Part shown: positions 4,779-53,487 of the stretch, piece by piece
Position numbering within the stretch: position 1 is the stretch's first letter
How the letters are laid out: each line of letters starts with the position of its first letter
NCBI GenBank assembly: GCA_043814605.1
Contig: JBDRJV010000027.1
Span: 1-60,422 of the forward strand
Direction of reading: 5' to 3'
Length of the DNA stretch: 60,422 nt
Origin: Candidatus Omnitrophota bacterium
GTDB lineage: Bacteria > Omnitrophota > Gorgyraeia > B26-G9
Notes under the pieces: generated by a model
Told to the model about the DNA's origin: nothing
The model's database searches: none
What the model saw: the letters and a program-made list of their open reading frames with translations, nothing else
Program-made: the position numbers and the translations under genes

Positions 4779-5114
4779 CTAATTTTTCTTTTCTGTTTTT
4801 CTTGCTTTCTCTGAATTGCCTGGTTTTTTCTCTGGGTAATTTTCTGATTTTGTTTTTCCCTGATTATCCCCGGCCTTTTTAACCTGAGAATCTTCTGTTT
4901 TAGGCGCAGTTTCTTTTGTTGGGGGCTCTTTGCGTTTATAATCGGTTTCATAAAACCCCGAACCTTTAAAAATAATACCCATTCCCGAACCAATGCGTCT
5001 TTTTGCTTTCAATCTTCCGCATTCAGGACATTTACGTATGGGGTTATCGGTCATTTTCTGAAACAATTCAAATTCGTGAGCACAGCTTTCACATTGATAA
5101 TCATATGTTGGCAA
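4779..5114 (-). CDS. FmdB-family zinc-ribbon protein with K/E-rich tail
   Basis: MPTYDYQCESC...CPECG is the CxxC...CxxC zinc-ribbon signature. The start codon is TTG, with the SD GGAAGGTG 8 nt upstream. Confidence 0.75.
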   Translation of the reverse strand: MPTYDYQCESCAHEFELFQKMTDNPIRKCPECGRLKAKRRIGSGMGIIFKGSGFYETDYKRKEPPTKETAPKTEDSQVKKAGDNQGKTKSENYPEKKPGNSEKARKTEKKN

Positions 5115-5311
5115 TTTTAAGCACCTTCCTTTTCAAAACAGATTATAGACAACAAACCACAGACCATGGATAAAAAATTAAAAACTTTTAATTGCTTGAT
5201 TATTTATGTTTATTGCTAATCGTGTTTTATTTTAAACAGACACATATGTTCGCTTTTTCTTTACAATATCGACTTTTTTGAGATCTAGCGTCCAATAGCT
5301 AAGATCAGGTT

Positions 5312-6460
5312 TTAGCCGCCAAATGCTTTTTTTAGTTTTTCAGAAATAGATCCGTTTTGAATATCTTCCCCTCTTAATTTTGCAAATTCTAATAATAATT
5401 TCTTTTCCCGTTCGGATAAATTAACCGGCACACTAACATGAACCTGCACAAATTGATCTCCTTTTTTATACCCGCGTAAATCTGTAAACCCTTTACCGTT
5501 AATTCGAAATACCTTTTCACTTTGCGTACCGGCGGGAATTTTCATTTTAATTTTTCCCTCGTATAAAGTAGGCACTTGAATTTCAGTGCCTAAAGCTGCT
5601 TGCACAAAACTGATTGATTTCTTGCAGTAAATATCATTACGATGCCTTTCGAAAATCTTATGTTTTTTCAGCCGAATTAATATATATAAATCACCGCGCG
5701 GGCCGTCTCGCGTTCCGGCTTCTCCTTCGCCGCGTACACGTAAATGCGAACCGGAATCAACTCCTGCGGGGACTTTAACATTTATTTTTCTTTGTACGCT
5801 CACCTTTCCTGTACCGCGGCAGCTTTTGCAAGGATTAGTAATAATTACTCCCTCACCGCGGCAGCTATCACAAGTCCGGGCAATGGTAAAAAACCCTGCG
5901 GATTGCCCAACTTGTCCGGATCCTTTACAGGCAGGACAAGTAATCTTTTTTGTTCCGGATTGAGCTCCTTCTCCATTACAGGCAGAACATACTTCTTTAC
6001 GGTTTATGGCAATACTTTTTTCTATACCCGCCGCTGCTTCTTCAAATTCAAGTGCCAATTCGTATTCTAAATCTGCGCCGCGCCGCGGACCGCCCCGTGA
6101 ACGTCTTGAACCTGAGAATCCAAATCCGGAAAAAATATCTTCAAAAATACCGCCGCCGCTAAAACCCATTTCCTCAAATATTGAACTAAAATCTGCACCG
6201 CGGAAAATATCTTCTTCACTGTATTGGTTATCAATTCCCGCATGGCCAAAACGATCATATTGCGCACGCTTATTCGTATCTGATAAAACCGCATAAGCCT
6301 CGGAAATTTCTTTAAATTTTTCTTCTGATTCTTTACGTTTATCTCCTGAGACACGGTCCGGATGATATTTCATCGCCAGTTTACGGTATGTTTTTTTGAT
6401 TTCATCAACGGAAGCATTTTTTTCAACACCCAGTATTTCATAATAATCCCGTTTTGTCAT
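5312..6460 (-). CDS. dnaJ: Molecular chaperone DnaJ
   Basis: J-domain (YYEILGV...HPD), G/F region and four CxxCxGxG zinc-finger repeats. The ATG at 6460 with an AGGA SD is preferred over the upstream GTG at 6484. Confidence 0.95.
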
Positions 6461-14237: not shown

Positions 14238-14459
14238 TTCCTTATTATTTTTATTTTATAACTTTAAATATTCACTAAATAAAATTCTTTACAAACTTAT
14301 TGATTTTAAAATATTTATATATAAAAAGCAGTAAAGTATACCATAACATTAATTGCTTTACAAATTTAAATTGAGAAAATTTTCCATAATTTAAACGAGA
14401 AAACAATTTTATAACTATAATTATTTAAAGTAGTTACAGATTAGATTGAGTTATTGTTT

Positions 14460-15968
14460 TTATTTACTTCGATTATTTTTTTGAGTTAAAAGCAGTAGTT
14501 TTTGAGAAATTGGGGGTGTGATCTGGTGCGGTAAAATCCGCCATTTCCAGTTACCCTGTGCTGCTCCGGGTAAATTCATGCGGTATTCTTGACCTAAGCC
14601 TAAAATATCCTGAGCTGGAATAATAATAATCTTAGCTACAGATTCCATTAAAACTTTAATCAATTCCCAATGGATTTGATCAGCGCTGACTTCTTTTTTT
14701 AAATATTTAAATAATTTTGCCTTATTTTCCGGTTCCAGCTCATTTTCAAACCAGCCGCGCGCTGTATTATTATCATGGGTGCCGGTATACGCCACACAAT
14801 TGGGAATAAAATTATGCGGTAAGTAAGGATGCTTTTCTAAATCCTCATAAAAAGCAAATAACAATATTTTCATACCCGGAAGTTTTAATTTACGAATCGC
14901 ATCTTTAACCTCATCGGTAATAATACCTAAATCTTCGGCAATGATCTGATCCCGGGAGAATTTTTGAAAAACCTTTTCGAAAAAATCATAAACCGGTGCT
15001 TTTTGCCAGGCACCGTTCATGGCAGTAGTCTGGCCTTTGGGTACTTGCCAATAATCAACAAATCCGCGGAAATGATCAATTCGGATTAAATCAAAAAGTT
15101 TCAAGTTATGCTCAATGCGTTTAATCCACCAGCTGTAATTATTTTCTTTTAATTTCTCCCAATTATACACTGGATTTCCCCATAATTGGCCGGTTTTACT
15201 AAAATAATCCGGTGGTACTCCGGCTAAAAACTCTAATCTTTTATCTTTATCCAGTTTAAATATTTCCGGATTAGCCCAGGTATCCGCACTATCATAAGTA
15301 ACATAAATCGGGATATCGCCAATAATTTTTATTTTCTTTTTATTACAGTATTTTTTTAAATCATGCCATTGCTGAAAAAATAAATATTGCAAAAATTTCT
15401 CTTTCTCTATCTCCGGTTCTAGTCTTTTCTTTAAATCATTCACCGCATTTAGATCTCGATCTCGGATTTTTTCCGGCCACTTACTCCAAATTATATTATT
15501 AAAGTGTTTTTTAAACACAATAAATACTGTATAAGTATCCAGCCAATCATCATTTTCTTTACAAAATTTTAAATATTCTTTATCTGCATCTAATTTTCCC
15601 TGTGCTTTAAAATTCTCAAAAGCTTTTATAAAAAGCATCCCTTTAAGTTTATATACCTGTTCAAAGTCGACATAAGTTTTGGGCAATTTTTCTAATTCAT
15701 TAAGATCTTTTTTCTTTATTAATTTTGCCTCAACTAAAATTTCCGGACTGATCAGAATATTATTAACAGCAAAAGCGCAACTACTGCTGTAAGGAGAATT
15801 TCCGTTTACAGAATTTGTCGGGTTAAGAGGTAAAACTTGCCAATACTTTTGTTTGGCTCCAGTTAAAAAATCAGCAAATTTATAGGCTTCAGGCCCCAAG
15901 TCCCCGATTCCATAGTTTGATGCCAGACTGCTAATATGCAGAAAAATACCACTGCCTTTTTTTATCAC
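14460..15968 (-). CDS. malQ: 4-alpha-glucanotransferase (amylomaltase, GH77)
   Basis: 502 aa with an N-terminus (GIFLHISSL...YGIGDLG) and catalytic-region motifs (RIDHFRGF, IIAEDLG) typical of MalQ. Confidence 0.9.
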   Translation of the reverse strand: MIKKGSGIFLHISSLASNYGIGDLGPEAYKFADFLTGAKQKYWQVLPLNPTNSVNGNSPYSSSCAFAVNNILISPEILVEAKLIKKKDLNELEKLPKTYVDFEQVYKLKGMLFIKAFENFKAQGKLDADKEYLKFCKENDDWLDTYTVFIVFKKHFNNIIWSKWPEKIRDRDLNAVNDLKKRLEPEIEKEKFLQYLFFQQWHDLKKYCNKKKIKIIGDIPIYVTYDSADTWANPEIFKLDKDKRLEFLAGVPPDYFSKTGQLWGNPVYNWEKLKENNYSWWIKRIEHNLKLFDLIRIDHFRGFVDYWQVPKGQTTAMNGAWQKAPVYDFFEKVFQKFSRDQIIAEDLGIITDEVKDAIRKLKLPGMKILLFAFYEDLEKHPYLPHNFIPNCVAYTGTHDNNTARGWFENELEPENKAKLFKYLKKEVSADQIHWELIKVLMESVAKIIIIPAQDILGLGQEYRMNLPGAAQGNWKWRILPHQITPPISQKLLLLTQKNNRSK

Positions 15969-27912: not shown

Positions 27913-28020
27913 ATGGAACCCCCACGGGCTAAAGCCCGTGGTTCCTGGGGTGGAATACTCAAGCGGCCTCCTTTTATCCGCGCCATAAATGGGCGCGGTT
28001 TTAGGCCGCGGATGTATAAA
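27913..28020 (+). repeat. 108-nt GC-rich structured intergenic repeat, copy 1 of 3
   Basis: It differs from the copies at 47577-47684 (same orientation) and 53360-53467 (inverted) by one base each, and contains nested GC-rich hairpins. Confidence 0.9.
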
Positions 28021-37143: not shown

Positions 37144-37842
37144 TTATTTTTTGTTCTTGATTTCAAAAGACAGGATAATTGCTTCCGCAATATCCTTCAT
37201 CGGCAGGCGTTTACTCATACTCGTTTTTCTTAATAAATTATATGCTTTTTCTTCACTGAGATTTTGTTCTTTCATCAAGATACCTTTTGCTTTTTCTACT
37301 TTTTTTCTCGCTTCTAATTCTTCCTGGATGACTTTAGTTTTCACAATCAACTCTGTATTTTCTATCGCCACTGCTGCCTGATTAGCAATCGTACTGACGA
37401 GGTCAATATCGCTTTTGCCAAATTTATATTCAGATGTTGTATAACAATTAATTACACCGATGACTTTATTTTTAACCATCATCGGAACGCTAAGCATAGA
37501 AACAAGGTTTTCTTTCTTAGCTAAAATTTTCTCTTTATATTTTTTATCTTTTTGGACATTTATAATTAAATTGGGTTTTTTTGTCATCGCCACTAAACCC
37601 ACAATTCCTTCCCCCACTTTTATACTTCTTTCCTTTAAATATTCGCTGCTCATCGCTTGAGTTGCTTTAATTTTAAGTTCCTGAGTTTTTTCATCCAGTA
37701 ACCATAGCGCACAAATTTTTGCTTTCATTACATTAGCAGTTAAAGTTACAATCAGTTTGAGCATATCTTCTAAATAAAGATCACTGGTGATCGCATTGCT
37801 GATTTTACTTAATGCGGCTATGTATTTTTTTTCTGATTTCAT
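37144..37842 (-). CDS. GAF-domain / ANTAR-domain RNA-binding antitermination regulator
   Basis: 232 aa with an N-terminal GAF domain and a C-terminal ANTAR helix bundle (ELEARKKVEKAKGILMKEQNLSEEKAYNLLRKTSMSKRLPMKDIAEAI). It lies 23 nt downstream of pyrG. Confidence 0.8.
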   Translation of the reverse strand: MKSEKKYIAALSKISNAITSDLYLEDMLKLIVTLTANVMKAKICALWLLDEKTQELKIKATQAMSSEYLKERSIKVGEGIVGLVAMTKKPNLIINVQKDKKYKEKILAKKENLVSMLSVPMMVKNKVIGVINCYTTSEYKFGKSDIDLVSTIANQAAVAIENTELIVKTKVIQEELEARKKVEKAKGILMKEQNLSEEKAYNLLRKTSMSKRLPMKDIAEAIILSFEIKNKK

Positions 37843-37865
37843 TTCAAATCCTAAACTTAATTTAT

Positions 37866-39464
37866 TTATTTCCCTAATGCAGCTTTAATAAAATCTCTGA
37901 ATAAAGGATGTACGTTGTCCGGTTTTGATTTAAATTCAGGATGAAACTGACAAGCTACAAACCAGGGATGGTTTTTTAATTCTATAATTTCAACTAATTT
38001 TGTCTGCTGATTAATACCTGAGAAAACTAACCCTTTTTTATCCATTATTTCCTTGTAGTCATTATTAAATTCATAACGGTGCCTATGTCTTTCAGAAATT
38101 TTTTCTTTTTTGTAAGATTTATAGGTGGTTGTGCCTTTTTTTATCTGACAATCGTACGCGCCCAGACGCATTGTTGCGCCTTTAATTTTAACTTTTTTTT
38201 GTTCTTCCAGCAAACTTATCACTGGATAGTGCGTATTTTTAGCAAACTCTGTTGAATTTGCATTTTTTAGATTACAAACATTTCTCGCAAATTCAATTAC
38301 TGTTGTCTGCATTCCCAGGCATATGCCAAAAAAAGGAATTTTATTTTCCCGGGCAAATTTCACAGCTTTAATTTTCCCTTCTATGCCCCGCGTACCAAAT
38401 CCTCCGGGAATTAAAATCCCCTTTACATCTTTTAAATATTTTTCTGCTCCATTTTTTTCAATATCCTCCGAATCAATTTTTTTAATAATTAATTTTGCAT
38501 CATTTTCAATTGCTCCGTGAAGAAGCGCCTCGTATATAGATTTATAAGCATCCTGCAATGATATATACTTGCCGACTACAGCAATCTTAACCTCTTGTGA
38601 GGGATATTTTAATCTTTTAATTACGCATTCTTCCCAGGTCGATAAATCACTGCTGCCGCATTTTAAATTAAGTAGTTTTATGATTAGCCCATCCAATTTT
38701 TCCTTGATTAATGTTCCGGGAACCTCATAAATACTTTTTACATCTACCGCCGGGATTACCGCATCGGCGTCAACATTACAAAAAAGAGCAATTTTTTCTT
38801 TTGTTTCTTTGGTTAAAATTTTTTCGGTACGGCACAATATAATATCCGGAATAATTCCAATCTCCCGTAAAGTTCCCACACTATGTTGAGTCGGTTTTGT
38901 TTTAATTTCACCGGCGGACTTAATATAAGGCACGAGTGTCACATGGATATTAAGCGCATAATCCTTGCCTAATTCAAGTTTTAATTGCCGGATAGATTCA
39001 AGAAAGGGAAGCCCTTCAATATCCCCCACAGTACCGCTGATTTCTACAATTACAACATCCACTTTTTTCCCATATGCTACTTTCTTGATACAATTTTTTA
39101 TTTCATCCGTAATATGGGGAATTATTTGTACTGTTTTTCCCAAATAACTGCCTTCGCGTTCTTTGGTAATAACCGAATGGTATATTTTACCCGTAGTAAT
39201 ATTATTATTTTTGGTCAACTTTGCATTAGTAAAACGCTCATAATGCCCTAAATCTAAATCAGTTTCCGCCCCATCCTCGGTTACATAGACTTCTCCGTGT
39301 TGAAAAGGATTCATGGTGCCTGGATCAACATTAATATAAGGATCGCATTTAATCAGTGTTACCTTTAGTCCTCGAGACTCAAGTAATTTCCCGATAGCCG
39401 CCGAAGCAATTCCTTTTCCTAAACTTGAAACAACTCCACCTGTGATAAATATATATTTAGACAT
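37866..39464 (-). CDS. pyrG: CTP synthase
   Basis: 532 aa with [18 protein letters not shown] at the N-terminus and a C-terminal glutamine amidotransferase domain (GICLGMQ, HRHRYE). Confidence 0.97.
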
Positions 39465-39737
39465 GATAGTTTTCCTTTTAAATCATCTATTCCATATTAC
39501 AAATACAACATTTTTTACTATCTTTTAATTTAGCACTTGGACACCCTCCTGTCCAGCAATATAAGCAAAGCTGTTAACGAAATAAACCCGAAGCCTTAAT
39601 CGCATCTTATAAATTCAAGATATTATTTATTATCAAACTTTTTTGCTCTTTTCAAAATTATTGTAGTTTGTTTTTTTAAATATTTTTAATTATCAAACCC
39701 GATTTTCTGACTCATAATTAATTCCCAATATAAGTAT

Positions 39738-41108
39738 TTATTTTTCTAATATCTTTTTTGAAAACCTTTTCGGAATCTTTGTTGGATATTTGCCGTCAAA
39801 ACAGGCGGTACAAAATTCACAGCTCGGTAAAAGCATTGTTTTTAACATCCCTTTTAAACTCAAGTATTTTAAACTATCCAACCCAATAAAATCGCGAATT
39901 TCAGAAACAGAGTAGTTCGCGGCAATCAATTCTTTCTTAGTGGGAAAATCTATACCATAAAAACAAGGATATTTAATTGGAGGACAACTAATGCGCATAT
40001 GCACTTTTTTTGCGCCGGAATTATAGAGTGTTTTGATACGGGCTTTACTTGTTGTCCCCCGTACTATAGAATCTTCAACCACCGCTAAGTTTTTCCCCTT
40101 AATCATATCTTTTATCGGATTAAGCTTTACTTTTACTCTAAAATCACGGATAAACTGAGAGGGCTGAATAAAAGTGCGTCCGATATAATGATTACGAATC
40201 ATGCCTACTTCAAAGGGAAGTTTAGCTTTTTTTGCAAAACCTAAAGCAGCATAATTTCCCGAATCCGGGATAGGCATAACTAAATCACATTTAACCGGAG
40301 ATTCTTTCGCTAATTGTTCCCCTAAACGTTTTCGGGTTAGATAAACATTTTTGCCAAAAATATTACTATCCGGCCGGGCAAAATAAATATATTCAAAGAT
40401 ACAAAAAGCATGCTTTTTTTTCGGAAACGGTTTTACAGATTCTATTTTATTATTGCGGATAAATACTATTTCTCCGGGCTCAATTTCTCGGAAATATTTT
40501 GCCTCGATTAAATCCAGCGCGCAAGTTTCACTAGCAAAAACATAAGCCCCGTCAAGTTTTCCGATACATAATGGTTTAAACCCATGCGGATCACGTGCTC
40601 CGATTAAAATATTATCAAGCATCATCACTAAAGAATATGCGCCTTCTAAAGAAAACAAGGCATTGATCACTTTTTTCTGATAATCCTTTTCTTTTGATTG
40701 TGCCAGAAAATGTACTATGGTTTCCGAATCCATTGTTGTTTGAAAAATAGACCCCTGTTCTTCCAATTGTTCACGCAATTGTGCTGTATTAGTAAAATTT
40801 CCATTATGGGCAATAGCAATATGCCCTTGTTTATGATTAACTAAAAAAGGCTGGATATTCCTGGCCAAACTTGATCCGGTTGTGGAATAGCGTACATGGC
40901 CCAGGGCTATTTTACCGCGCAGTTTACGAATTGCCGGTTCATCAAAAATATCTTCTACCAATCCCATCCCTTGATGCGAATAGGTTTTTTTACAATCATA
41001 GCTGACAATACCCGCACTTTCCTCTCCTCGATGCTGCAATGCATATAAACCTAAATAAGTTAATCTCGCCGCATCCTTATGTCCTGAAACGCCAAATATT
41101 CCACACAT
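39738..41108 (-). CDS. purF: Amidophosphoribosyltransferase
   Basis: 456 aa with the N-terminal MCGIFG Ntn-amidotransferase nucleophile and a PRTase domain (VVEDSIVRGTT). Confidence 0.95.
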   Translation of the reverse strand: MCGIFGVSGHKDAARLTYLGLYALQHRGEESAGIVSYDCKKTYSHQGMGLVEDIFDEPAIRKLRGKIALGHVRYSTTGSSLARNIQPFLVNHKQGHIAIAHNGNFTNTAQLREQLEEQGSIFQTTMDSETIVHFLAQSKEKDYQKKVINALFSLEGAYSLVMMLDNILIGARDPHGFKPLCIGKLDGAYVFASETCALDLIEAKYFREIEPGEIVFIRNNKIESVKPFPKKKHAFCIFEYIYFARPDSNIFGKNVYLTRKRLGEQLAKESPVKCDLVMPIPDSGNYAALGFAKKAKLPFEVGMIRNHYIGRTFIQPSQFIRDFRVKVKLNPIKDMIKGKNLAVVEDSIVRGTTSKARIKTLYNSGAKKVHMRISCPPIKYPCFYGIDFPTKKELIAANYSVSEIRDFIGLDSLKYLSLKGMLKTMLLPSCEFCTACFDGKYPTKIPKRFSKKILEK

Positions 41109-41127
41109 AATATTTATCCTGTTCTGA

Positions 41128-44100
41128 TTAGGAATTCTTAATATATTCCTGAATTGGGGTTACCGTAAAATCATTCCTCATTCTTGATTCAATACCATTA
41201 ACTGCTGCTTGTGCACCCTGAATAGTCGTAATACAGGGAATTCCATGCATTACTGCGGCATTGCGAATCGGCTTCATATCCGATTGTCCCTTTGGACCAG
41301 TAGGAGTATTAATTACCAATTTTATCTCCCCAGTTTTTATTAAATCTAAAATTTCTGAACTGCCTTCACTGATCTTTTTCACACTTTGGGCTTTTATATT
41401 ATTTGAATTAAGCACTTTATATGTCCCTTTTGTCGCAATTAATTTAAATCCCAAATTAAAAAGCTTTTTTGCCACAAATACAATATCTCTTTTATCATCA
41501 TTTTTTACACTGATGAATATTTTACCTTTTTTCGGTAAAAAAGAGCCGGCTGCAATCTGAGATTTATAAAAAGCAATATCAAAAGATCTATCGATCCCCA
41601 TAACTTCCCCGGTTGATTTCATTTCCGGGCCTAAAATAATATCCACACCGGAAAAACGGGAAAAAGGCAGTACAGATTCTTTTACAGCAACGTGTTCAAT
41701 TTTTTTCTCCGTAGTTATGCCTAATTCTGATAATTTCTTCCCGGACATAATTTTTGCCGCAATCTTAGCCAAGGGTACACCGGTGGCTTTAGAAACAAAA
41801 GGTGCTGTACGCGAAGCCCGCGGATTAACTTCCAACACATAAACAGTATTATTTTTCACGGCAAATTGTATATTAATAAGGCCTTTGACTTTTAATTCCT
41901 GCGATAAAACTACAGTACATTTTCTGATATTATCAATTATTTCATCATCTAGAGTATGCGGCGGAATTACACACGCAGAATCGCCGGAATGCACACCTGC
42001 TTCTTCGATATGTTCCATTATTCCGCCAATCACTGTATTTTCTCCGTCAGATAAAGCATCAACATCAACTTCAACTGCACCTTCTAAAAATTTATCGATT
42101 AAAATTGGTTTTTCCGGAGATACATCTACAGCTTCCTGCATAAATTTTTCTAATTCCTGTTGCTGATAAACAATCCGCATTGCCCGTCCGCCCAAAACAT
42201 AAGAAGGCCGGACCAAAACCGGATAGCCAATTTCTTGTGCAATACTAATTGCTTGTTTAAGCGAAGTTGCTGAACCATTCGGCGGCTGATTAATATTTAA
42301 TTTTTTAATAAGTTTGGCAAATTTATCCCGGTTCTCAGCCCGGTCAATTGATTCAACAGATGTACCAATTATCGGCGCTCCGGCATCAGAGAGTTCTTTT
42401 GCTAAATTTAATGGCGTCTGCCCGCCAAACTGCACAATAATTCCGTCCGGCTTTTCTTTATCCACAATATTCATCACATCTTCAAATGTTAAAGGCTCAA
42501 AATAAAGTTTATCCGAAGTATCATAATCTGTAGAAACAGTTTCCGGATTAGAATTAACCATTATTGTCTCATACCCTAATTCTTTTAATGCAAATGCTGC
42601 ATGACAACAACAGTAATCAAATTCTATGCCCTGTCCAATACGGTTAGGCCCTCCTCCTAAAATCATAATTTTTTTCTTATGGGAAACCCGCATTTCATCT
42701 TCTGTTTCATAAGTAGAATAATAATAGGGGGTATAAGCTTCAAATTCCGCAGCACATGTATCCACTAATTTATAAGTCGGGATAATCCCTGTTTTCTTAC
42801 GGTAATTTCTGACACTAATCTCATCGGAATCAATTAGTTGGGCAATTTGTCTATCACTAAATCCATACTGTTTGGCTTGGAGTAATAATTCTGAATCAAA
42901 ATTATTTATCCCCTGCTTTGTTTTGTACTGCTTAATTTTATCTTCCAGTTCAACTATTTGTAAAATATTATCTAAAAACCAAAGATCAATTTTTGTGATT
43001 TCAGCAATCTTCTTTATACTCATACCTTTCTGCAAGGCATATTTAATATAAAAAATTCTCGAAGCATTTGGTTCTTTTAAACGATGCAGAAGTTTTTCTT
43101 CGTCAATTTCATTGAAATCTTGTTTATTATCTAAGCCAATATGTTCAATTTCCAATCCGCGTAATCCTTTTTGTAACGCCTCTTTAAATGTACGGCCAAT
43201 TGCCATTGTCTCGCCTACAGACTTCATTGAAATTCCTAAAATATCCTTAGCTTCCGGGAATTTCTCAAAAGTAAACCGCGGAATTTTCACCACACAATAG
43301 TCAATCGTTGGTTCAAAAGAAGCCGGGGTTTCTTGGGTAATATCATTACAGATTTCATCCAGTGTATAACCTACGGCAAGTTTTGCCGCAAATTTTGCAA
43401 TGGGAAACCCCGTGGCTTTACTGGCTAAGGCGGATGAGCGGGAAACACGCGGGTTCATTTCAATAACAACCATTCTCCCTGTAGCCGGGTTAACCGCAAA
43501 CTGGATATTGGAACCGCCGGTTTCCACTCCAATTTCACGGATAATTGCCAAAGATGCATCACGCATTTTTTGATACTCTCTATCCGTTAATGTCTGCGCC
43601 GGAGCCACAGTTATGGAATCGCCAGTATGAATACCCATAGGATCAAAATTTTCAATTGAGCAAACAATTACTACATTATCTTTTTTATCCCGCATTACTT
43701 CCAGTTCATACTCTTTCCAGCCTAAAATTGATTCCTCAACTAAAATTTCACTGATCATGCTATTTTTTAGACCTAAATCCGCAATGCTTATAAATTCTTC
43801 TTCAGTTGTCGCAATGCCGCCGCCTGTACCTCCGAGTGTAAAACTGGGTCTAATAATCAACGGCAGGCCGATTTCTTTCAACGCTGCTTTTGCCTCGGCC
43901 ATATTATAAGCTAAAGCACTTCTGGGTAAATCTAACCCAATTTTCTGCATTGCTTCTTTAAAATATTTTCTATCTTCAGCTTTTTGGATTGCTTTGGTAT
44001 TCGCACCAATCATTTTTACATTATATTTTTTTAATATTCCTAGTTCTGCGGCCTTCATTGCTGTATTTAATCCGGTTTGTCCGCCTAATGTCGGTAATAT

Positions 44101-44355
44101 TGCATCCGGTCTCTCTTTAGCAATAATTTTTTCTAATACTTCCGGAGTTATCGGTTCAATATAAGTTGCATCCGCTATTTCCGGATCAGTCATAATTGTT
44201 GCCGGATTAGAATTAATCAGTACAACTTTATACCCTTCTTCTCTGAGTGCTTTACAAGCCTGGGTACCGGAATAATCAAATTCGCAAGCCTGGCCAATAA
44301 TTATCGGGCCAGAACCAATAATCAATATTTTTTTTATGTCTGTTCGCTTGGGCAT
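41128..44355 (-). CDS. carB: Carbamoyl-phosphate synthase large subunit
   Basis: 1075 aa with duplicated ATP-grasp halves and an MGS-like C-terminal domain. Confidence 0.97.
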
Positions 44356-45485
44356 TTTTTTAATCCTAATTTATAAGTTTCTATCAAAGCAACAAATCTT
44401 TTAAACAAATATGCTGAATCATGCGGACCCGGGCAGGATTCCGGATGAAACTGCACAGAAAAAACCGGCAGTTTTCTATGTCTAATCCCTTCCAGTGTCT
44501 GATCATTAAGATTTATATGTGTAATTTCAATTTCATCTTTATTTAAAGAATTAAGGTCAACGCAAAAACTATGGTTCTGTACAGTGATATCAATTTTTTC
44601 AGTTTCTAAATCTTTAACCGGTTGATTGCCTCCATGGTGGCCAAACTTTAATTTATAAGTTCTCCCGCCTAAAGCTAAACCCAGCATTTGCTGCCCTAAA
44701 CAAATCCCGAACATCGGTATTTTTTTCTTATGTGCCAAAATCTTTTTCACAGTCTCAATCACATAAGTTACTGCTGCCGGGTCTCCCGGGCCGTTAGAAA
44801 GCATTATCCCGTCCGGATTTAATTTTAAAATTTCACCAAATCCGGTTTGCGCCGGAACAACATAAACAGCACAATTATTATTGGCTAAAGAACGTAAAAT
44901 ATTAAGTTTTACGCCGCAATCTATAACCACAACCTTATATTTACCCTCTTTTTTAAAGCAATAAGTTTTTTGGCAAGTCACTTCCTTAACCAGGTCAATT
45001 CCAACTAACCCTTGAGAATTTTCTGCTTTTTTAATTAAACTTTTATCATCTAAATCTTCAGTGGAGATTACGGCTTTCATTGCTCCTTTTAAACGCGTAT
45101 GACGTGTCAGCGCCCGGGTATCCACGCCTTCAATTCCGATGATATTATTTTGTTTTAAATATTCATTCAGTGTTTGAGTTGCGCGCCAATTACTATAAAA
45201 GCGTGAACATTCCCGAACTACAAAAGCCTCAACCCAAGGCCTAGTAGATTCTATATCGTCTGAATTTACACCATAATTACCGATTAAAGGATAGGTCATG
45301 GTAACAATTTGACCTTTATAGGAAGGATCTGTAAGAATTTCCTGGTACCCGGACATGCTGGTATTAAATACTACTTCTCCGAATGTTGTTCCGGTTGCCC
45401 CAAAAGAATATCCGGAAAAAATTCGGCCATCTTCTAAAGCAATCTTTGCTTTTGTTCTTTTGCCATATAGTTTATTATCAGTCAT
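44334..45485 (-). CDS. carA: Carbamoyl-phosphate synthase small (glutaminase) subunit
   Basis: 383 aa with the GATase triad region (GICLGQQ, FHPE). Its 3' end overlaps the carB start by 22 nt. Confidence 0.95.
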
Positions 45486-45661
45486 AAAATATATATTAAA
45501 AAATGCACTTTATTCAGTAGATTTTCAGTATTTTTTAAGGCCCTGCAAAAAAAACAGGAGTTTTGAAGGGTTTTCAATCTCTATGATTATAATATATAAC
45601 ATTTAAATTTGAAAGATTTTTTTTAAAAAATTAAACTTCTATTGTTTTTACAGAAACCATT

Positions 45662-45699
45662 AAAAAAGGCAGATTCTTAACCCAGAACCTGCCTTTTTT
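45662..45699 (-). terminator. Intrinsic terminator downstream of gdhA (bidirectional form)
   Basis: Stem GGCAGGUUCU/AGAAUCUGCC (one mismatch) with a hexaloop. It is flanked by an A6 run and a T6 run. Confidence 0.65.
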
Positions 45700-45727
45700 A
45701 TCTTATAACTTCGCTGCTAAATTAACG

Positions 45728-47408
<1,681 letters not shown>

Positions 47409-47490
47409 ATAATAAAATAAAAAAAGACATTTCCTCCTTGTTCAGGAAACGTCTTTGTTTCTTCCATATACAATACAAACATTGTATTGT
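47409..47490 (-). promoter_or_regulatory. ANTAR-type dual-hexaloop antiterminator overlapping an intrinsic terminator (gdhA leader)
   Basis: P1 is ACAAUAC[AAUGUU]GUAUUGU and P2 is GAAAC[AAAGAC]GUUUC. The 3' half of P2 forms the 5' arm of a 13-bp terminator stem that is followed by a U-tract. Confidence 0.65.
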
Positions 47491-47497
47491 GAAAATA

Positions 47498-47526
47498 AGC
47501 TTATCAAAATTCAAAAATATTGTCAA
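47498..47526 (-). promoter_or_regulatory. Candidate sigma70-type promoter of gdhA
   Basis: Minus strand reads TTGACA (47526-47521)-N17-TAAGCT (47503-47498). P1 begins 7 nt downstream. Confidence 0.5.
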
Positions 47527-47576
47527 TAAAAAAATCGCCTGATTTTTAAGCAAATTTTATTTTTAATTTATTATTA

Positions 47577-47684
47577 ATGGAACCCCCACGGGCTAAAGCC
47601 TGTGGTTCCTGGGGTGGAATACTCAAGCGGCCTCCTTTTATCCGCGCCATAAATGGGCGCGGTTTTAGGCCGCGGATGTATAAA
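47577..47684 (+). repeat. 108-nt GC-rich structured intergenic repeat, copy 2 of 3
   Basis: Identical to copy 1 except T at 47601 (C at 27937). Confidence 0.9.
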
Positions 47685-47719
47685 CCAATGCTTCAATATA
47701 AAGCAAAAAATTAAAATTA

Positions 47720-48928
47720 TTATATACTAGATTTTTTAACTCCCTGATTCCAGCGATCTTTAAGTTTAGGATTATCAATCCAGGATAACAAGTATTTTGT
47801 ATATTCCTCTCCGGTTACTCCGGTATCCCTGCCGGTAATTATCATCTTTTTTTCAAATTGCCCGCAGATATCTAAAGCCATTTCTACTTTTTCTGCTTGA
47901 TTATTAAATCCAATATGTCTAATCAGCATTGCACTGGCACGAATCATAGAACAGGGATCAGCAAATTTTGCCCGCCCTTCTTTAACCATACGCGGCGCAC
48001 TGCCATGAATTGCTTCAAACATTGCCCATTTTTTCCCGATGTTTGCACTGCCAGCTGTACCTACGCCGCCTTGCATTTGCGCGGCTTCATCCGTTAAAAT
48101 ATCGCCGTAAAGATTCGGCAGAACTAACACCTTAAATTCTTTGCGCCTAGCCGGATCAATTAACTTTGCACTCATAATATCAACATACCACTCATCCAGT
48201 TTAATTTTCGGATATTCCCGGGCAACACGAAAAGCAACCCGGGAAAACCGGCCGTCTGTAGTTTTTATAACATTTGATTTGGTAACTACGGTCACACGGT
48301 TAATATTATTCTTCTTTGCATATTCAAAGGCCATACGAATAATACGCTCTGAACCTTGCTCTGTTATGACTTTAAAGTCTATACTCAAATTTTCGGAAAC
48401 ATCAAATCCTCTGGAACCTAAAACATAAGCCCCTTCTGTATTCTCTCTAAAAAAACACCAATCAATGCTTTCTTGAGGAATTTTTATTGGCCGTATATTA
48501 GCAAAAAGATCCAAATGCCGGCGCATGGCTACATTGGCGCTTTCAATGTTTGGCCACTTATCCCCAGCTTGCGGTGTTGTTGTCGGGCCTTTAAGAATTA
48601 CATGGCATGATTTTATTTCTTCGAGCACATCATCGGGAATTGCCTTTTTATGTTTAACCCTGTTTTCAATTGTTAATCCCGTAATATCTTTAAATTTAAT
48701 TTTTCCTTGAGCTATCTGAGTTTTTAACATATGTTCTAAAACTACTTGCGCATGTTTGGAAATAATTTCACCGATCCCATCGCCCCAGCAAATACCGATA
48801 ATAATCGGCGATAAAGTTGTATAATCCGGGCTCTGGACATCTTTTTTCATTTCTTCAACGCGTGCTAACTGCTCTTGGATTATAATTTTAAATTTTTCCT
48901 GTGCATTTTTTATCATTTCTTGCGACAT
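47720..48928 (-). CDS. icd: Isocitrate/isopropylmalate dehydrogenase family enzyme (probable isocitrate dehydrogenase)
   Basis: The family motif NLYGDILTDEAAQMQGGVGTAGSANIG is present. The ATG at 48928 with an AGAGGT SD is preferred over the upstream GTG at 48958. Confidence 0.7.
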   Translation of the reverse strand: MSQEMIKNAQEKFKIIIQEQLARVEEMKKDVQSPDYTTLSPIIIGICWGDGIGEIISKHAQVVLEHMLKTQIAQGKIKFKDITGLTIENRVKHKKAIPDDVLEEIKSCHVILKGPTTTPQAGDKWPNIESANVAMRRHLDLFANIRPIKIPQESIDWCFFRENTEGAYVLGSRGFDVSENLSIDFKVITEQGSERIIRMAFEYAKKNNINRVTVVTKSNVIKTTDGRFSRVAFRVAREYPKIKLDEWYVDIMSAKLIDPARRKEFKVLVLPNLYGDILTDEAAQMQGGVGTAGSANIGKKWAMFEAIHGSAPRMVKEGRAKFADPCSMIRASAMLIRHIGFNNQAEKVEMALDICGQFEKKMIITGRDTGVTGEEYTKYLLSWIDNPKLKDRWNQGVKKSSI

Positions 48929-49027
48929 TTTTTTACCTCTAATATTTTTTAAAATCACCTTTTCTTTTTCTTTAGATCAGTTTTTCCTTTAATACATTAT
49001 ACCCTAAATTATTATTTTTATAAACCT

Positions 49028-50425
49028 CTACCATTTACCAGTTTTTAAATATTGATCTATTACACGTGCGGCAGTTTTTCCTGCTCCCATTGCCGAGATT
49101 ACTGTCGCTGCTCCGGTTGCAATATCTCCGCCGGCAAATACCCCTTTTTTACTGGTCTTTCCGGTTTCAGAATCAATTTCGATATTACCTTTTTTGCCAA
49201 TTTTAAGTCCCGGAGTTGTCTCCGGAACTAGAGGATTTGGGCTATTACCAATAGCTACCACAACCACGTCTACAGGGATTTTAAAATTAGAATCTTCAAT
49301 CGGGACAGGGCGTCTTCTGCCTGATGCATCGGGTTCTCCTAATTTCATTCTTAAGCACTCCATTTCCCTTACCCAGCCCTTTTTATCTGCGTAATAAGCT
49401 ATCGGCAAGGTTAAAAATTCAAATTGAACTCCTTCTTCTTCGGCATGATGGATTTCTTCATTACGTGCGGGCATTTCTGCTTTTGATCTTCTGTAGATAA
49501 CCATTGCTTTTTCTGCGCCTAAACGTAATGCTGTTCTCACTGAATCCATAGCTACATTCCCGCCGCCAATCACTGCCACGTTTTTGCCTTTTATTGTCGG
49601 CGTGTCATATGCCGGAAAACTGTATGCTTTCATTAAATTGCTTCTGGTTAAATATTCATTTGCGGAAAATATTCCGCTATAATTCTCTCCGGGTAAAGAC
49701 ATAAACCAGGGCAGACCTGCCCCAGTTCCGACAAAAATCGCATTAAATTCATTAAGAAGTTCATCGATAGTTTTTAATTTACCCACCACAAAATCAGTTA
49801 CAATTTCTACGCCTAAGGAGTGAATATATTCAACTTCTCTTTCTACAATCGAATTAGGCAGTCGAAATTCAGGGATCCCATAGACAAGTACCCCTCCCAT
49901 CTCATGTAATGCTTCAAATATCGTTACTGCATGTCCGAGTTTTACCAGTTCACCCGCAACGGTAAGCCCTGCCGGACCTCCACCCACACAAGCGACTTTT
50001 TTTCCGGTAGAAATTTTCTTAACTGGCCTGAAAATGTTATCCTGTTTAGCTTCCCAGTCAGCAATAAATCTTTCTAACCTTCCAATCGCTACGGGCTCTC
50101 CCATTTTAGAGAGAATACAAACTTTTTGGCATTGATCTTCCTGCGGACATACCCGGCCACATATAGCTGGAAGCACATTAGTTTCTTTCATCTTTTTTAT
50201 GGAAGCATGGAAATCTGCTTTAGCAATTAAATCTATAAATCCCGGAATATCTATACCCACAGGACAACCTTTAACACACAAAGGATTTTTACATTGTAAA
50301 CACCTTTTTGCTTCCAAAACCGCTTCTTCTTCAGAATATCCAAAAGGGACTTCCTTAAAATTTTTAATTCTTTCCCGGGGTATTTGTTCACGCATGGGTA
50401 TTTGAGTAGGATCTACTTTTGCCAT
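49028..50425 (-). CDS. nfnB: NfnB-like / GltD-like (homotetrameric-type NADPH glutamate synthase family) FAD and Fe-S oxidoreductase
   Basis: 465 aa with N-terminal cysteine clusters (CLQCKNPLCVKGCPV, CGRVCPQEDQC) and two Rossmann GxGxxG motifs. Confidence 0.7.
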   Translation of the reverse strand: MAKVDPTQIPMREQIPRERIKNFKEVPFGYSEEEAVLEAKRCLQCKNPLCVKGCPVGIDIPGFIDLIAKADFHASIKKMKETNVLPAICGRVCPQEDQCQKVCILSKMGEPVAIGRLERFIADWEAKQDNIFRPVKKISTGKKVACVGGGPAGLTVAGELVKLGHAVTIFEALHEMGGVLVYGIPEFRLPNSIVEREVEYIHSLGVEIVTDFVVGKLKTIDELLNEFNAIFVGTGAGLPWFMSLPGENYSGIFSANEYLTRSNLMKAYSFPAYDTPTIKGKNVAVIGGGNVAMDSVRTALRLGAEKAMVIYRRSKAEMPARNEEIHHAEEEGVQFEFLTLPIAYYADKKGWVREMECLRMKLGEPDASGRRRPVPIEDSNFKIPVDVVVVAIGNSPNPLVPETTPGLKIGKKGNIEIDSETGKTSKKGVFAGGDIATGAATVISAMGAGKTAARVIDQYLKTGKW

Positions 50426-50439
50426 GATTTATTAATTCC

Positions 50440-51276
50440 TTAATTTTTGTTCTTAATTTTTTCCTCAAGCTTACACAGAGAACGATTCTCATGCGGAATA
50501 AATCTCTTCTGTCTATCCATCAGCTCATTAAAATCAACTTGATGTCCATCAAAATCCGGTCCGTCAACACAAGTAAATTTAGTTTCTCCCCCGATTGTAA
50601 CCCGGCATCCGCCACACATTCCTATCCCATCGATCATAATAGAATTCAAACAAACCAATGTATATATATCAAATTGTTTAGTTAGATTAGAGACTGCACG
50701 CATCATAGGCAGAGGGCCGACACAAAAGACCAGGTTATAATTTGATTTTTTTTCAATTAATTTTTTCAACGGATCCGTTACTATTCCCTTTTGCCCGAGT
50801 GAACCATCATCAGTTGTTATGTATAAAGCATCTGAGTATTCATTTATTTGTTCTTTTAGTATTACTAGATCAGCGGTGCGGCCGCCTAAAATTGATGTGA
50901 TTGAACACCCGGCTTGTTTCAATGCCCGTACTACTGGCAGAAGCTCCGCAATGCCAACTCCCCCGCCGACAACAATTATATTCCCGTAATTTTTTATCGG
51001 TGTAGGTTTTCCTAAAGGCCCGACCAGAGAATATAAAGAATCGCCTACTGTTAACCCCGCCAATAATTTCGTAGTATATCCTACTTCCTGAAAAATAATA
51101 GTTATACACTTATTTTCTTTATCTGAGTCCACAATGGTCAGCGGAATACGCTCCCCTTCTTTATTCACCATTAGCATAATAAATTGTCCGGGCAAAGCTT
51201 TCTCCGCAATAAGCGGCGCTTCGATGATAAATTTAGTTAAATCCTTGGTAATTTTTTCTTTAGCTAAAATCTTCAT
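50440..51276 (-). CDS. nfnA: NfnA-like sulfide/dihydroorotate-dehydrogenase-type FAD/NAD-binding subunit with a C-terminal 2Fe-2S cluster
   Basis: 278 aa with a ferredoxin-reductase-type fold and a C-terminal cysteine motif (GMCGGCRV...FTCVDGP). It lies directly upstream of the nfnB-like gene. Confidence 0.7.
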   Translation of the reverse strand: MKILAKEKITKDLTKFIIEAPLIAEKALPGQFIMLMVNKEGERIPLTIVDSDKENKCITIIFQEVGYTTKLLAGLTVGDSLYSLVGPLGKPTPIKNYGNIIVVGGGVGIAELLPVVRALKQAGCSITSILGGRTADLVILKEQINEYSDALYITTDDGSLGQKGIVTDPLKKLIEKKSNYNLVFCVGPLPMMRAVSNLTKQFDIYTLVCLNSIMIDGIGMCGGCRVTIGGETKFTCVDGPDFDGHQVDFNELMDRQKRFIPHENRSLCKLEEKIKNKN

Positions 51277-51295
51277 TTTTTCACCTTAGTTTAAC

Positions 51296-51375
51296 GAAAC
51301 AAAAAAAAGACATTTTCCAGTTTTAAATTTAGGATAACGTCTTTGTTATTATTAAATTCAATATCATCATTGTAT
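51296..51375 (-). promoter_or_regulatory. ANTAR-type dual-hairpin antiterminator overlapping an intrinsic terminator (nfnAB leader)
   Basis: P1 is AUACAAU[GAUGAU]AUUGAAU and P2 is AUAAC[AAAGAC]GUUAU. The terminator AAAGACGUUAUCC/GGAAAAUGUCUUU plus U8 follows, and the SD and ATG lie about 30 nt downstream. Confidence 0.6.
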
Positions 51376-51384
51376 TAAAAATCA

Positions 51385-51413
51385 AGATTACCATGATCTA
51401 AAAAAAAAGTCAA
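51385..51413 (-). promoter_or_regulatory. Candidate sigma70-type promoter of the nfnAB operon
   Basis: Minus strand reads TTGACT (51413-51408)-N17-TAATCT (51390-51385). Confidence 0.55.
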
Positions 51414-51431
51414 GAGGGCAAAGTGGGACAT

Positions 51432-51653
51432 TTATTCAATTCCTAGAGGATTAATAATATTGCGGTGCAGAGATCCATTATAGGTAGGCACTTCCCCTTC
51501 AAAAGGCTTAGATATAATATCCGGGGTAGACAGCTTATCCCATAGCACAATAATCACAAAAATTAGCAATAATAAAATAATCACCGCAATCAATTCCTGT
51601 TGAAATAAGTTGTGTTCCTCTTCTTTCTTCTGTTTATTCTCAATATTAATCAT
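51432..51653 (-). CDS. Small single-pass membrane protein, function unknown
   Basis: 73 aa with one central TM helix (LIAVIILLLLIFVIIVLW). Confidence 0.45.
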   Translation of the reverse strand: MINIENKQKKEEEHNLFQQELIAVIILLLLIFVIIVLWDKLSTPDIISKPFEGEVPTYNGSLHRNIINPLGIE

Positions 51654-51673
51654 ATTTCAGCCATGCAATAAAT

Positions 51674-52129
51674 TTAGGGGCGGGGCGGTTTTAATCTAAT
51701 TCTTTGGATATCTTTTTCTAATTCTTTTGTCTGCGCTTGAGATTCTTTAATCGCTTGCTCTAAAGCTTCTTTGGCTTCTGCCTCTAACTCTTTGTTTCTT
51801 TTTTTTGTATAATCCTCTGCTTCTTTTAATAATTTCTCCAGTTCATCCTCAAGATTTTTTATTTTTAATTTTGTTTCAATCTGAGCTTTTTTCATGCCTT
51901 GGTTAGTTTCCTCATCCGCTTGTTTGATGATTTGCTCTAATTCTTCTTGATTTTCTCTTTCTTCTTTTTTTATTTTTTCGCTTTCAATCAAAGCCTCATG
52001 GCGAGCTATTTTTTCAGAAATAGTTAATTCCTTTTGTTCCCCAGCTGCTGCATTAATTTCAAAAACGTAGCCAAAAACCAGTGTGAATAAAAAAATTAAT
52101 GAGAAATTAAAAAATAATACTTTCTTCAT
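51674..52129 (-). CDS. Secreted coiled-coil protein rich in E/K, function unknown
   Basis: 151 aa with a signal peptide and a long charged helical region. Confidence 0.5.
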   Translation of the reverse strand: MKKVLFFNFSLIFLFTLVFGYVFEINAAAGEQKELTISEKIARHEALIESEKIKKEERENQEELEQIIKQADEETNQGMKKAQIETKLKIKNLEDELEKLLKEAEDYTKKRNKELEAEAKEALEQAIKESQAQTKELEKDIQRIRLKPPRP

Positions 52130-53359: not shown

Positions 53360-53467
53360 TTTATACATCCGCGGCCTAAAACCGTGCCCATTTATGGCGC
53401 GGATAAAAGGAGGCCGCTTGAGTATTCCACCCCAGGAACCACGGGCTTTAGCCCGTGGGGGTTCCAT
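53360..53467 (-). repeat. 108-nt GC-rich structured intergenic repeat, copy 3 of 3 (inverted)
   Basis: It is the reverse complement of copy 1 except T at 53385. It ends 1 nt before the thiE ATG. Confidence 0.9.
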
Positions 53468-53487
53468 TAATTAAATTGGATTAAAAG

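Follow-up and report, generated by a model that had tools for sequence, protein, structure and literature searches.

The locus considered here raises the question of why two transcription units of a Candidatus Omnitrophota bacterium, one beginning with an nfnA-like gene and the other with gdhA, are preceded by what appears to be one and the same leader, and what that leader does. Both units lie on contig JBDRJV010000027.1 of assembly GCA_043814605.1, and the whole stretch of 60,422 nucleotides that was analysed is called the window below. A preliminary description of the nfnA leader (51296-51413) had proposed that it is a second copy of an antiterminator module made up of a promoter, two small hairpins (P1 and P2), and a terminator that overlaps P2. 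Our answer is that the nfnA leader is best read as a predicted protein-dependent transcription attenuator of the ANTAR class, at which a GAF-ANTAR protein would bring about antitermination within a nitrogen regulon; we give this reading a probability of about 0.78.

The RNA substrates of ANTAR proteins have been described as dual hairpins whose hexaloops carry A at position 1 (A1) and G at position 4 (G4). Their P2 overlaps a terminator, and most of them precede nitrogen genes (PMC3369931). Antitermination by hexaloop binding is established for the proteins EutV, NasR, and AmiR (PMC3369931).

Structure of the nfnA leader

The elements of the nfnA leader were found in the order promoter, P1, linker, P2, overlapping terminator, a run of eight U residues (U8), and, 3' of U8, a ribosome-binding site (AAGGUGA) followed by the nfnA ATG at position 51276. 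The putative promoter that the preliminary description had given as TTGACT-N17-TAATCT was read on the minus strand at the position listed in Table 1, and it includes an extended -10 element (TG at 51393-51392) that had gone unmentioned there. The P2 hairpin, AUAAC[AAAGAC]GUUAU, and its overlap with a U8 terminator were borne out by the sequence, and the minimum free energy (MFE) fold contains the terminator helix. The 5' arm of this helix, AAAGACGUUAUCC, is made up of the P2 3' arm and the 3' half of the hexaloop before it, and it pairs with GGAAAAUGUCUUU with one A.A mismatch. Therefore, P2 and the terminator are mutually exclusive.

The MFE structure of the whole leader was the terminator form, with a helix of -11.4 kcal/mol, and the free energy of P2 was only -1.1 kcal/mol. 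Because P1 and P2 are far weaker than the terminator, and because the terminator form is the MFE structure, the antiterminated form is expected to need a stabilising factor, and the default outcome should be termination after about 75-80 nucleotides. A consensus scanner called the gdhA terminator (see below) and not that of nfnA, the reason being that the 13-nt loop of the latter exceeds 8 nt.

The preliminary description had given P1 as AUACAAU[GAUGAU]AUUGAAU and had remarked that its loop starts with G. The string is present (51375-51356, with one A.A mismatch) and the hairpin is conserved, but the register did not stand: orthologous P1 loops (AAUGGU, AAAGUU, and AAUGGC, closed as xxAUAC[loop]GUAUxx) fix the window loop as AAUGAU, which has both A1 and G4. 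The initial G was most likely an artefact of the register. The homology register (Table 1) was also calculated to be the more stable of the two, at -0.4 kcal/mol versus +1.6 kcal/mol for the earlier one.

The gdhA leader as a second copy

The leader of gdhA was found to have the same parts in the same order and with matching spacing, and the mean column identity of the two leaders from the -35 box to the U-run was 80%. As the preliminary description had claimed, the P2 hexaloop AAAGAC is identical in the two leaders, and the P2 stems differ at two base pairs that are both compensated (G-C to A-U and A-U to U-A). P1 and P2 are separated by a linker of 8 nt in front of nfnA, of 9 nt in front of gdhA, and of 0-15 nt in most relatives; in the EutV system, lengthening the linker by 20 nt abolishes action (PMC8934654). 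The gdhA leader has a z-score of -5.9. Its P1 is better read with a 7-nt loop that has A1 and G4, and the P1 stem is as in four related loci (L082-L084 and L114; loci fetched for comparison are given L numbers throughout).

Three strings that had been reported as common to both leaders, ACAAAGACGTT, AATGTCTTTTTTT, and AATACAATG, have exact matches in the window only at these two sites. Each of them is singly unremarkable, since at least 2 matches were obtained in 14-28 of 100 shuffles. The joint architecture of the two leaders is clearly non-random.

To search the window, we used two covariance models. For model R2, we used 28 related leaders, left the window sequences out, and ran the search unfiltered; model R1 included the window sequences. 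As the two best matches, R2 returned positions 51302-51353 with 32.0 bits (E 6e-6) and 47419-47465 with 30.3 bits (E 1.7e-5), and the next-best match in the window had 13 bits (E 0.7). R1 gave the nfnA leader 36.7 bits and agreed with R2 on the window. No third copy was found there, as the matches of either model outside the two leaders did not exceed about 13 bits, and a scan of both strands for a hairpin with an AxxGxx hexaloop, an upstream hairpin, and a U-run yielded no further convincing site. The claim that the nfnA and gdhA units have one ANTAR-type device in common is supported by R2 and by the syntenic contigs described in the following section.

Neither leader matched an Rfam family, whether at the gathering threshold over the whole window or at E values up to 5 over positions 47000-51700; the gathering-level matches in the window were three tRNAs only, located elsewhere.

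Conservation and covariation in related genomes

An exact-sequence look-up of the window NfnA returned no record, and its homologues were taken instead; those with 70-80% identity were nearly all from Candidatus Omnitrophota. In a scan based on GdhA (one genome per species), the closest loci were Candidatus Omnitrophota metagenome-assembled genomes (MAGs) with 79-84% identity, and nfnA, nfnB, and gdhA were contiguous in eleven of the closest ones; four of them had a GAF-ANTAR orthologue as a neighbour. Upstream of nfnA or gdhA, all of these MAGs had TTGACA-N16/17-TAnnnT followed by GGAC[ARAGRC]GUCC overlapping a terminator.

Six contigs (L161-L166) have largely the gene order of the window, namely thiE, RNase T, small open reading frames (ORFs), nfnA, nfnB, the Iso_dh-family gene, gdhA, carA, and carB. 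Three of them (L161-L163) carry both leaders, each with P1, P2, and the terminator. For example, the nfnA leader reads GCAAUAC[AAAGUU]GUAUUGC ... AGAAC[AAAGAU]GUUCU in L161 and CUAUAC[AAUGGU]GUAUAG ... AGGAC[AAAGAC]GUUCU in L163, and the gdhA leaders of the three contigs read AGUAC[AAUGUA]GUACU ... GGAAC[AAAGGC]GUUCC and variants of this. The possibility that P1 of the window is merely a recent intragenomic copy was rejected, as P1 is present in both leaders of L161-L163.

Conservation of pairing was evaluated in an alignment of nine leaders from the window, L161-L163, and L166 (A6, made with MAFFT and not fitted to the structure) and in an alignment of 30 leaders that covers P2 and the terminator (A4; a further alignment, A5, likewise covers P2 and the terminator). 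A dual-hairpin alignment (A3) was dropped because MAFFT misaligned the P1 3' arms, owing to the variable linker lengths. The pairs of P1 and P2 were formed in 92.3% of the cells of A6, and sliding the partners by 1-3 columns reduced this value to 28-50%; P2 was 100% paired in the nine close leaders. Six pairs had changed on both sides (four in P1 and two in P2), a number reached by 1 of 500 shuffles, and the covariation score was 0.405 compared to 0.191 +/- 0.03 in the shuffles and was reached by none of the 500, counts that come from a small sample of related sequences and so are not formal probabilities. In A4, pairing in the 9-bp core of the terminator reached 97.8%, and two of its pairs had compensatory changes; none of 500 shuffles attained this, with the same reservation. 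Conservation and covariation in related genomes, on which the preliminary description had made its claim depend, were found in both A6 and A4 (0/500 shuffles in each) and therefore support that claim.

The seed leaders were first gathered by a regular expression derived from the window P2 (AC-RRRGRC-GT plus a U-run). G4 of the P2 loop was kept in all 30 leaders of A4, although the expression had demanded it; the terminator 3' arm and the outer pairs of the P2 stem are independent of the way of collection. The third pair of the P2 stem was formed in 29 of 30 leaders (G-C in 19, A-U in 5, and G-U in 5). Across the relatives, position 1 of the P2 loop is A, sometimes G or U. A P1-like hairpin was found 5' of P2 in 32 of 51 family leaders, compared to 7.5 +/- 2.5 in shuffles.

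Distribution of the motif and the genes downstream of it

The distribution of the motif relative to the GAF-ANTAR gene was evaluated by scanning metagenomes with an alignment of GAF-ANTAR proteins; of the loci obtained, 45 had full-length orthologues and 35 had GAF-like matches only. R1 had 32 matches in the loci with full-length orthologues (L082-L125, 393 kb), in 20 of the 45, whereas it had no match in the loci with GAF-like matches only (L126-L160, 301 kb), that is, in 0 of 35 (Fisher p ~1e-6). There were 18 matches in GdhA loci of the Omnitrophota type (L002-L017, 256 kb), and one weak match in the negative control, which consisted of GdhA loci of other phyla (L018-L080 from Bacteroidota, archaea, and others; 966 kb). 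Only loci from the lineage with GAF-ANTAR orthologues carry the motif.

We tallied the first ORF downstream of each of 52 sites, with a few genes remaining unclear. The genes were GAF-ANTAR (11 sites), nfnA (10), an archaeal-type gltB-like gene (8), gdhA or another glutamate dehydrogenase (GDH) gene (6), nadE (3), and glnA (2), and further ones were carA, carB, pyrG, amtB, P-II, and a GATase_2 (gltB) fragment. These annotations point to a predicted nitrogen-assimilation regulon that is lineage-wide, in which the pair of leaders before nfnA and gdhA is not special to this genome.

Attenuators, often two in tandem, were also present 5' of the GAF-ANTAR genes of relatives (L089 87-261, L113 9810-9986, L091 9786-9964, L125 9937, L012 4594-4786, and L003 217-267), and they imply autoregulation. 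Tandem attenuators were likewise found 5' of gltB-like genes (L105, L082, and L004) and of glnA (L090). In relatives, an ANTAR-type leader is located 5' of carA (L015, L010, L164, and L166), carB (L002), and pyrG (L007); no such leader was found in the carA and pyrG upstream regions of the window. In the region upstream of carA (45485-45728), a promoter-like site and a U-rich hairpin were seen besides the terminator of gdhA; the hexaloop motif was absent. Upstream of pyrG there is a hairpin, GGAC[AGGAGGGU]GUCC (39540-39560, minus strand), that resembles the P2 stem of the family, with an 8-nt loop and no terminator; it was not scored by the covariance models and may be a decayed leader.

The GAF-ANTAR protein

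The candidate for the trans-acting antiterminator is a 232-amino-acid protein with a C-terminal ANTAR domain (residues 173-223), which scored 70.6 bits on the Pfam ANTAR model (cut-off 27.3). When all six frames of the window were searched with the ANTAR profile, no second ANTAR domain was found. In phmmer comparisons, the domain matched EutV (6wsh, 5.8e-12), Rv1626 (1.8e-7), NasR (3.5e-7), and AmiR (3.6e-3). It has the conserved motif RK..EKAKGIL....L.EE.AY..LR..SM..R, in which the tyrosine of the EutV sequence EEEAY is kept. In EutV, the flipped-out loop G4 stacks on Tyr164 (PMC8934654); the EutV chain numbering is off by two, and the correspondence of the tyrosines rests on the motif and not on the residue number. 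The nearest relatives of the GAF domain are the N-terminal one of PtsP/EI-Ntr and the one of NifA.

The gene ends a run of glutamine-amidotransferase genes on the minus strand (37144-45485), which includes carA, carB, purF (TIGR01134), and pyrG, and the same genes occur in a similar order in L003. Among the best 120 clusters listed, orthologues of the regulator were 76-84% identical; the named ones were nearly all from Omnitrophota and had generic names only. Orthologues adjoin nfnAB-gdhA in L003, L005, L012, and L167, in the last of these directly upstream. The two paralogues of L012 flank nfnAB-gdhA, one being upstream of nfnA and the other downstream of gdhA. In L001, positions 14319-15554 encode a protein of 411 amino acids with two GAF domains and one ANTAR domain.

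Coordinates and neighbouring genes

The positions of the features are collected in Table 1.

Table 1. Leader elements and genes of the window, with the profile matches on which the gene assignments are based.
Feature	Position	Strand	Details
nfnA leader, putative sigma-70 promoter	51385..51413	minus	-35 TTGACT 51413-51408; 17-nt spacer; -10 TAATCT 51390-51385
nfnA leader, P1 hairpin	51358..51378	minus	homology register UUAAUAC[AAUGAU]G(A)UAUUGAA; bulged A51364; C-G closing pair
nfnA leader, P2 antiterminator hairpin (predicted)	51334..51349	minus	AUAAC[AAAGAC]GUUAU; 5-bp stem; hexaloop with A1 and G4
nfnA leader, intrinsic terminator (predicted)	51301..51344	minus	arms AAAGACGUUAUCC 51344-51332 and GGAAAAUGUCUUU 51318-51306; 13-nt loop; U8 51308-51301
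gdhA leader	47419..47526	minus	-35 TTGACA 47526-47521; N17; TG plus -10 TAAGCT 47506-47498
gdhA leader, P1	47489-47471	minus	CAAUAC[AAUGUUU]GUAUUG
gdhA leader, P2	47461-47446	minus	GAAAC[AAAGAC]GUUUC
gdhA leader, terminator	47456-47423	minus	U-run to 47419; called by consensus scanner
nfnA-like gene	50440..51276	minus	FAD/NAD-binding 2Fe-2S subunit, sulfide/dihydroorotate-dehydrogenase-like type; Pfam DHODB_Fe-S_bind, NAD_binding_1; NF004862 385 bits (cut-off 220)
nfnB-like gene	49028..50425	minus	GltD / 'NADPH-dependent glutamate synthase GltA' family; Pfam Fer4_20, Pyr_redox_2; TIGR01316 583 bits (cut-off 472)
Isocitrate/isopropylmalate dehydrogenase-family gene	47720..48958	minus	Pfam Iso_dh 1.8e-69; under every NCBIfam equivalog cut-off
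gdhA, NADP-specific glutamate dehydrogenase	45728..47137	minus	Pfam ELFV_dehydrog; NF006929 781 bits (cut-off 536)
GAF-ANTAR protein, candidate trans-acting antiterminator	37144..37842	minus	232 amino acids; Pfam GAF_2 2.9e-20, ANTAR 9.1e-20

The nfnA and nfnB genes are adjacent, with 14 nt between them, and both members of a two-gene NfnAB pair were recognised by their profile scores. The label nfnAB (NADH-dependent reduced ferredoxin:NADP+ oxidoreductase, also SudAB, GltA-type) is our best guess for the pair, and the activity is a predicted one. Co-transcription of the Iso_dh-family gene with nfnAB is assumed. The 69-nt gap between nfnB and this gene contains a promoter-like sequence, TTTATA-N17-TATAAT (49024-48996, minus strand), and given this site the Iso_dh-family gene may not depend on the nfnA leader alone.

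The 5' untranslated region of gdhA that follows the leader terminator (47138-47418, minus strand) measures 281 nt to the ATG, compared to about 30-150 nt in relatives. Inverted repeats rich in GC (ATCCCGCC...GGCGGGAT) lie within it, as does a near-perfect palindrome (47209-47238); no repeat copies of the stretch were found elsewhere, and it had no Rfam match.

The window contains three copies, 98-99% identical, of a GC-rich element of about 110 bp (47573-47684, 27913-28020, and, inverted, 53360-53471). All three copies are intergenic, and the element is strongly structured, with an MFE of about -49 kcal/mol. The element was absent from all of the related loci fetched and had no Rfam match; it may be an element of the type of miniature inverted-repeat transposable elements or repetitive extragenic palindromes, or a small structured RNA.

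Counter-evidence and alternative explanations

Several observations weigh against the interpretation of the leader as an attenuator for the GAF-ANTAR protein of the window. In the RNA itself, P1 of nfnA is energetically marginal and requires a bulged A or an A.A mismatch, the P1 loop of gdhA has 7 nt and not 6, and the -10 hexamers of both leaders match the consensus at 3 of 6 positions. It is for this last reason that the consensus scanner called neither promoter; the weak -10 boxes are compensated by TGn. Many orthologous nfnA leaders lack P1 (L002, L005, L012, L017, and L165-L167), and hence the dual-hairpin rule is not universal. Most nfnA leaders beyond the nearest sub-clade leave no space for a P1. 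In the leaders named, P2 begins about 3-25 nt from the -10 box (about 3-12 nt in L002, L012, L017, and L165-L167), and they look like natural single-hexaloop antiterminators at the extreme 5' end of the transcript, a predicted arrangement that fits the revised view of a single hexaloop as the minimal ANTAR motif (PMC8934654). The core 10 nt of the motif (the inner two P2 pairs plus the loop) are not independent evidence because the seeds were collected with the regular expression. With regard to the protein, its gene is located 13.5 kb downstream of the nfnA leader, 23 nt after pyrG, and lacks a leader of its own, and the presence in L012 of two GAF-ANTAR paralogues of two sequence types (44-770 and 4791-5507) makes the identity of the cognate protein uncertain. 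Finally, the signal and the sign of the regulation are pure inference, and the regulon mixes GDH with glutamine synthetase, glutamate synthase, and AmtB.

The L012 paralogues, together with the 411-amino-acid double-GAF ANTAR protein of L001 and the fact that the window is only part of a genome, lead to the alternative that fares best, which is that the leader is an ANTAR-type attenuator whose regulator is a different ANTAR protein (a paralogue or one of the REC-ANTAR type) with its gene beyond the 60-kb window. We consider this unlikely, although it deserves some weight. The window protein has the sole ANTAR domain within 60 kb, and its orthologues are ubiquitous in Omnitrophota, often directly adjoining nfnAB-gdhA. 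Orthologues are also present on contigs that carry the syntenic leader, namely those of L161 (63,055 bp), L165 (506,687 bp), and L164 (44,135 bp).

The position of the leader suggests a simpler alternative, in which the hairpin and U-run are a constitutive terminator of the upstream operon (thiE, RNase T, a 151-amino-acid ORF, and a 73-amino-acid ORF with its stop codon at 51434-51432), and the similarity to the gdhA leader is due to duplication of a terminator/promoter cassette that is not a switch. The 73-amino-acid ORF stops 18 nt before the -35 box with no other terminator between it and nfnA, and the promoter is weak by consensus. However, the -35 and -10 boxes are 5' of P1, P2, and the terminator, and this position is kept in leaders that have unrelated upstream genes (over 15 related leaders have TTGACA-N16/17-TAnnnT directly 5' of the motif). 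Furthermore, a plain terminator would have no need of a conserved AxxG hexaloop, or of a P2 5' arm that is conserved and covaries with the 5' arm of the terminator, and the motif tracks both the nitrogen function of the downstream gene and the presence of the GAF-ANTAR gene. On balance, a plain terminator is very improbable.

The remaining alternative, a real attenuator under non-ANTAR control, is the least probable of the three: an ORF of 13 codons (AUG AUG AUA ... UCC UAA; 51329-51370, minus strand) that runs from the P1 loop (51370) through P2, and one of 33 codons at the equivalent AUG of the gdhA leader (47385-47483, minus strand), could be leader peptides, but the AUG has no Shine-Dalgarno sequence and is part of the AAUG loop, being missing where the loop is AAAGUU or AAAGGC (L161, L082, and L093), and the short ORFs of both leaders are judged to be incidental. 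A small-molecule riboswitch is opposed by the Rfam searches, in which all matches were far under the gathering score even at E values up to 5, and by the size of the conserved part, which is two mini-hairpins and too small for a ligand pocket. As for control by a protein such as CsrA or one of the PyrR-like or HutP-like type, CsrA sites contain GGA in their consensus, whereas the window loop AAAGAC does not.

Discussion

Taken together, the results favour the interpretation that the nfnA and gdhA leaders are ANTAR-type attenuators. On the RNA side, we found tandem hairpins (with a deviating P1), loops with A1 and G4, overlap of P2 with the terminator, a short linker, an ANTAR gene, and covariation, and on the protein side a C-terminal ANTAR domain (by Pfam) and conserved RNA-contacting residues (by alignment).

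In the mechanism that we propose, transcription would begin a few nucleotides 3' of the TGnTAATCT -10 element. By default, the nascent RNA would fold into the terminator (51344-51306 plus U8, about -11 kcal/mol), and the polymerase would stop after about 75-80 nt. A dimer of the GAF-ANTAR protein (37144-37842, or a paralogue encoded elsewhere) in its RNA-binding state would capture the hexaloops as they emerge, P1 (AAUGAU) and then P2 (AAAGAC). With P2 held closed, AAGACGUUAU (AAGAC-GUUAU, the terminator 5' arm) would be sequestered and the terminator helix could not nucleate, resulting in read-through into nfnA-nfnB and probably also into the Iso_dh-like gene. The same device about 4 kb downstream would govern gdhA, and the supply of NADPH (by Nfn), 2-oxoglutarate (by the Icd-like enzyme), and NADP-specific GDH would be co-regulated in a lineage-wide nitrogen regulon.

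The signal is probably nitrogen status, in the form of glutamine and/or 2-oxoglutarate sensed by the GAF domain that resembles those of PtsP and NifA, and we infer that read-through most likely takes place under nitrogen limitation because the regulon holds amtB, P-II, and glnA. The GAF domain of NifA binds 2-oxoglutarate. That of EI-Ntr binds glutamine (PMC4848567).

The predicted system resembles EutV/eut of Enterococcus faecalis, NasR/nasF of Klebsiella, and AmiR/amiE of Pseudomonas in its tandem A1/G4 stem-loops, short linker, and overlap of P2 with the terminator, as well as in the presence of an ANTAR gene in the neighbourhood and in nitrogen-related targets. It differs from them in the sensor, which is GAF here and REC, NIT, or pseudo-REC there, in being known from sequence alone, and in its host, an uncultivated member of Omnitrophota. 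The closing pairs AC...GU are strongly conserved here, many of the relatives have a single hairpin (P2), and P1 has a 7-nt loop in the gdhA leader and a bulge in the nfnA leader. The targets nfnAB(-icd) and gdhA are not among the entries in the part of Table S2 of Ramesh et al. (2012) that was available to us.

A second comparison is with GnfK/GnfR of Geobacter sulfurreducens, where GnfR relieves leader terminators and the site CAGGCAANGGCGCC is GGC[AANGGC]GCC (PMC2995071). This site is similar to GAC[AAAGGC]GUC of the relatives and close to AAC[AAAGAC]GUU of the window, and as in the nif, glnK, and amtB leaders of Geobacter, terminators in the leaders of nitrogen genes would be under the control of an ANTAR protein (here a predicted one). 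In contrast to the window, GnfR is a phosphorylated response regulator and there is sigma-54/GnfM control, whereas the window promoters are sigma-70-like; gdhA of Geobacter is controlled at its promoter by GnfM, whereas gdhA in the window itself bears an attenuator.

The predicted ANTAR nitrogen regulons of Firmicutes (Desulfotomaculum acetoxidans and Carboxydothermus, and the nitR-type of Clostridium; PMC3369931, PMC4676874) likewise have an attenuator before many units, including those for glutamine synthetase, glutamate synthase, ammonium transport, and P-II, and the regulator gene is often within the regulon. They differ in that their regulators are REC-ANTAR proteins and that here a one-component GAF-ANTAR protein is proposed, with a regulon to which nfnAB, gdhA, carA, carB, pyrG, and nadE are added. 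As of 2012, no GAF-ANTAR protein had been characterised (PMC3369931), and the table of characterised ANTAR antiterminators in a 2025 review contains AmiR, NasR, EutV, and Rv1626 only (PMC12591593). Predictions of ANTAR attenuators 5' of nitrogen genes in various phyla go back to 2012, and the mechanism proposed here is an expected one. New are the phylum of the host, the GAF domain as sensor, nfnAB(-icd) and gdhA as targets, and the frequency of single-hairpin leaders.

A wider proposal, to which we give slightly less than even odds, is that the GAF-ANTAR protein of about 232 amino acids is the master one-component nitrogen regulator of Omnitrophota, sensing glutamine and/or 2-oxoglutarate directly and gating the whole regulon (amtB, P-II, glnA, the gltB-like gene, gdhA, nfnAB, carA, carB, pyrG, nadE, and its own gene) purely by antitermination.

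Omnitrophota have no cultured representative and little is known of their gene regulation, and the pair of leaders provides a cis element of about 80 nt with defined critical bases, together with a candidate trans factor, the GAF-ANTAR protein, for the nitrogen control of the phylum. One predicted switch would tie the supply of NADPH by NfnAB, and the Iso_dh-like gene, to the NADP-dependent GDH, a link missing from the earlier predicted ANTAR targets in the part of that compilation available to us. The covariance model separates sites from the background in the window by about 17 bits or more and could serve to map the regulon in any Omnitrophota MAG. A small and highly conserved GAF-ANTAR orthologue with an evident RNA target is an entry point to an uncharacterised class of regulators. 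If the GAF-ANTAR protein is indeed the master regulator, a function would be assigned to the GAF-ANTAR architecture for the first time, and the leaders would be a natural test of the model in which a single hexaloop is the minimal motif.

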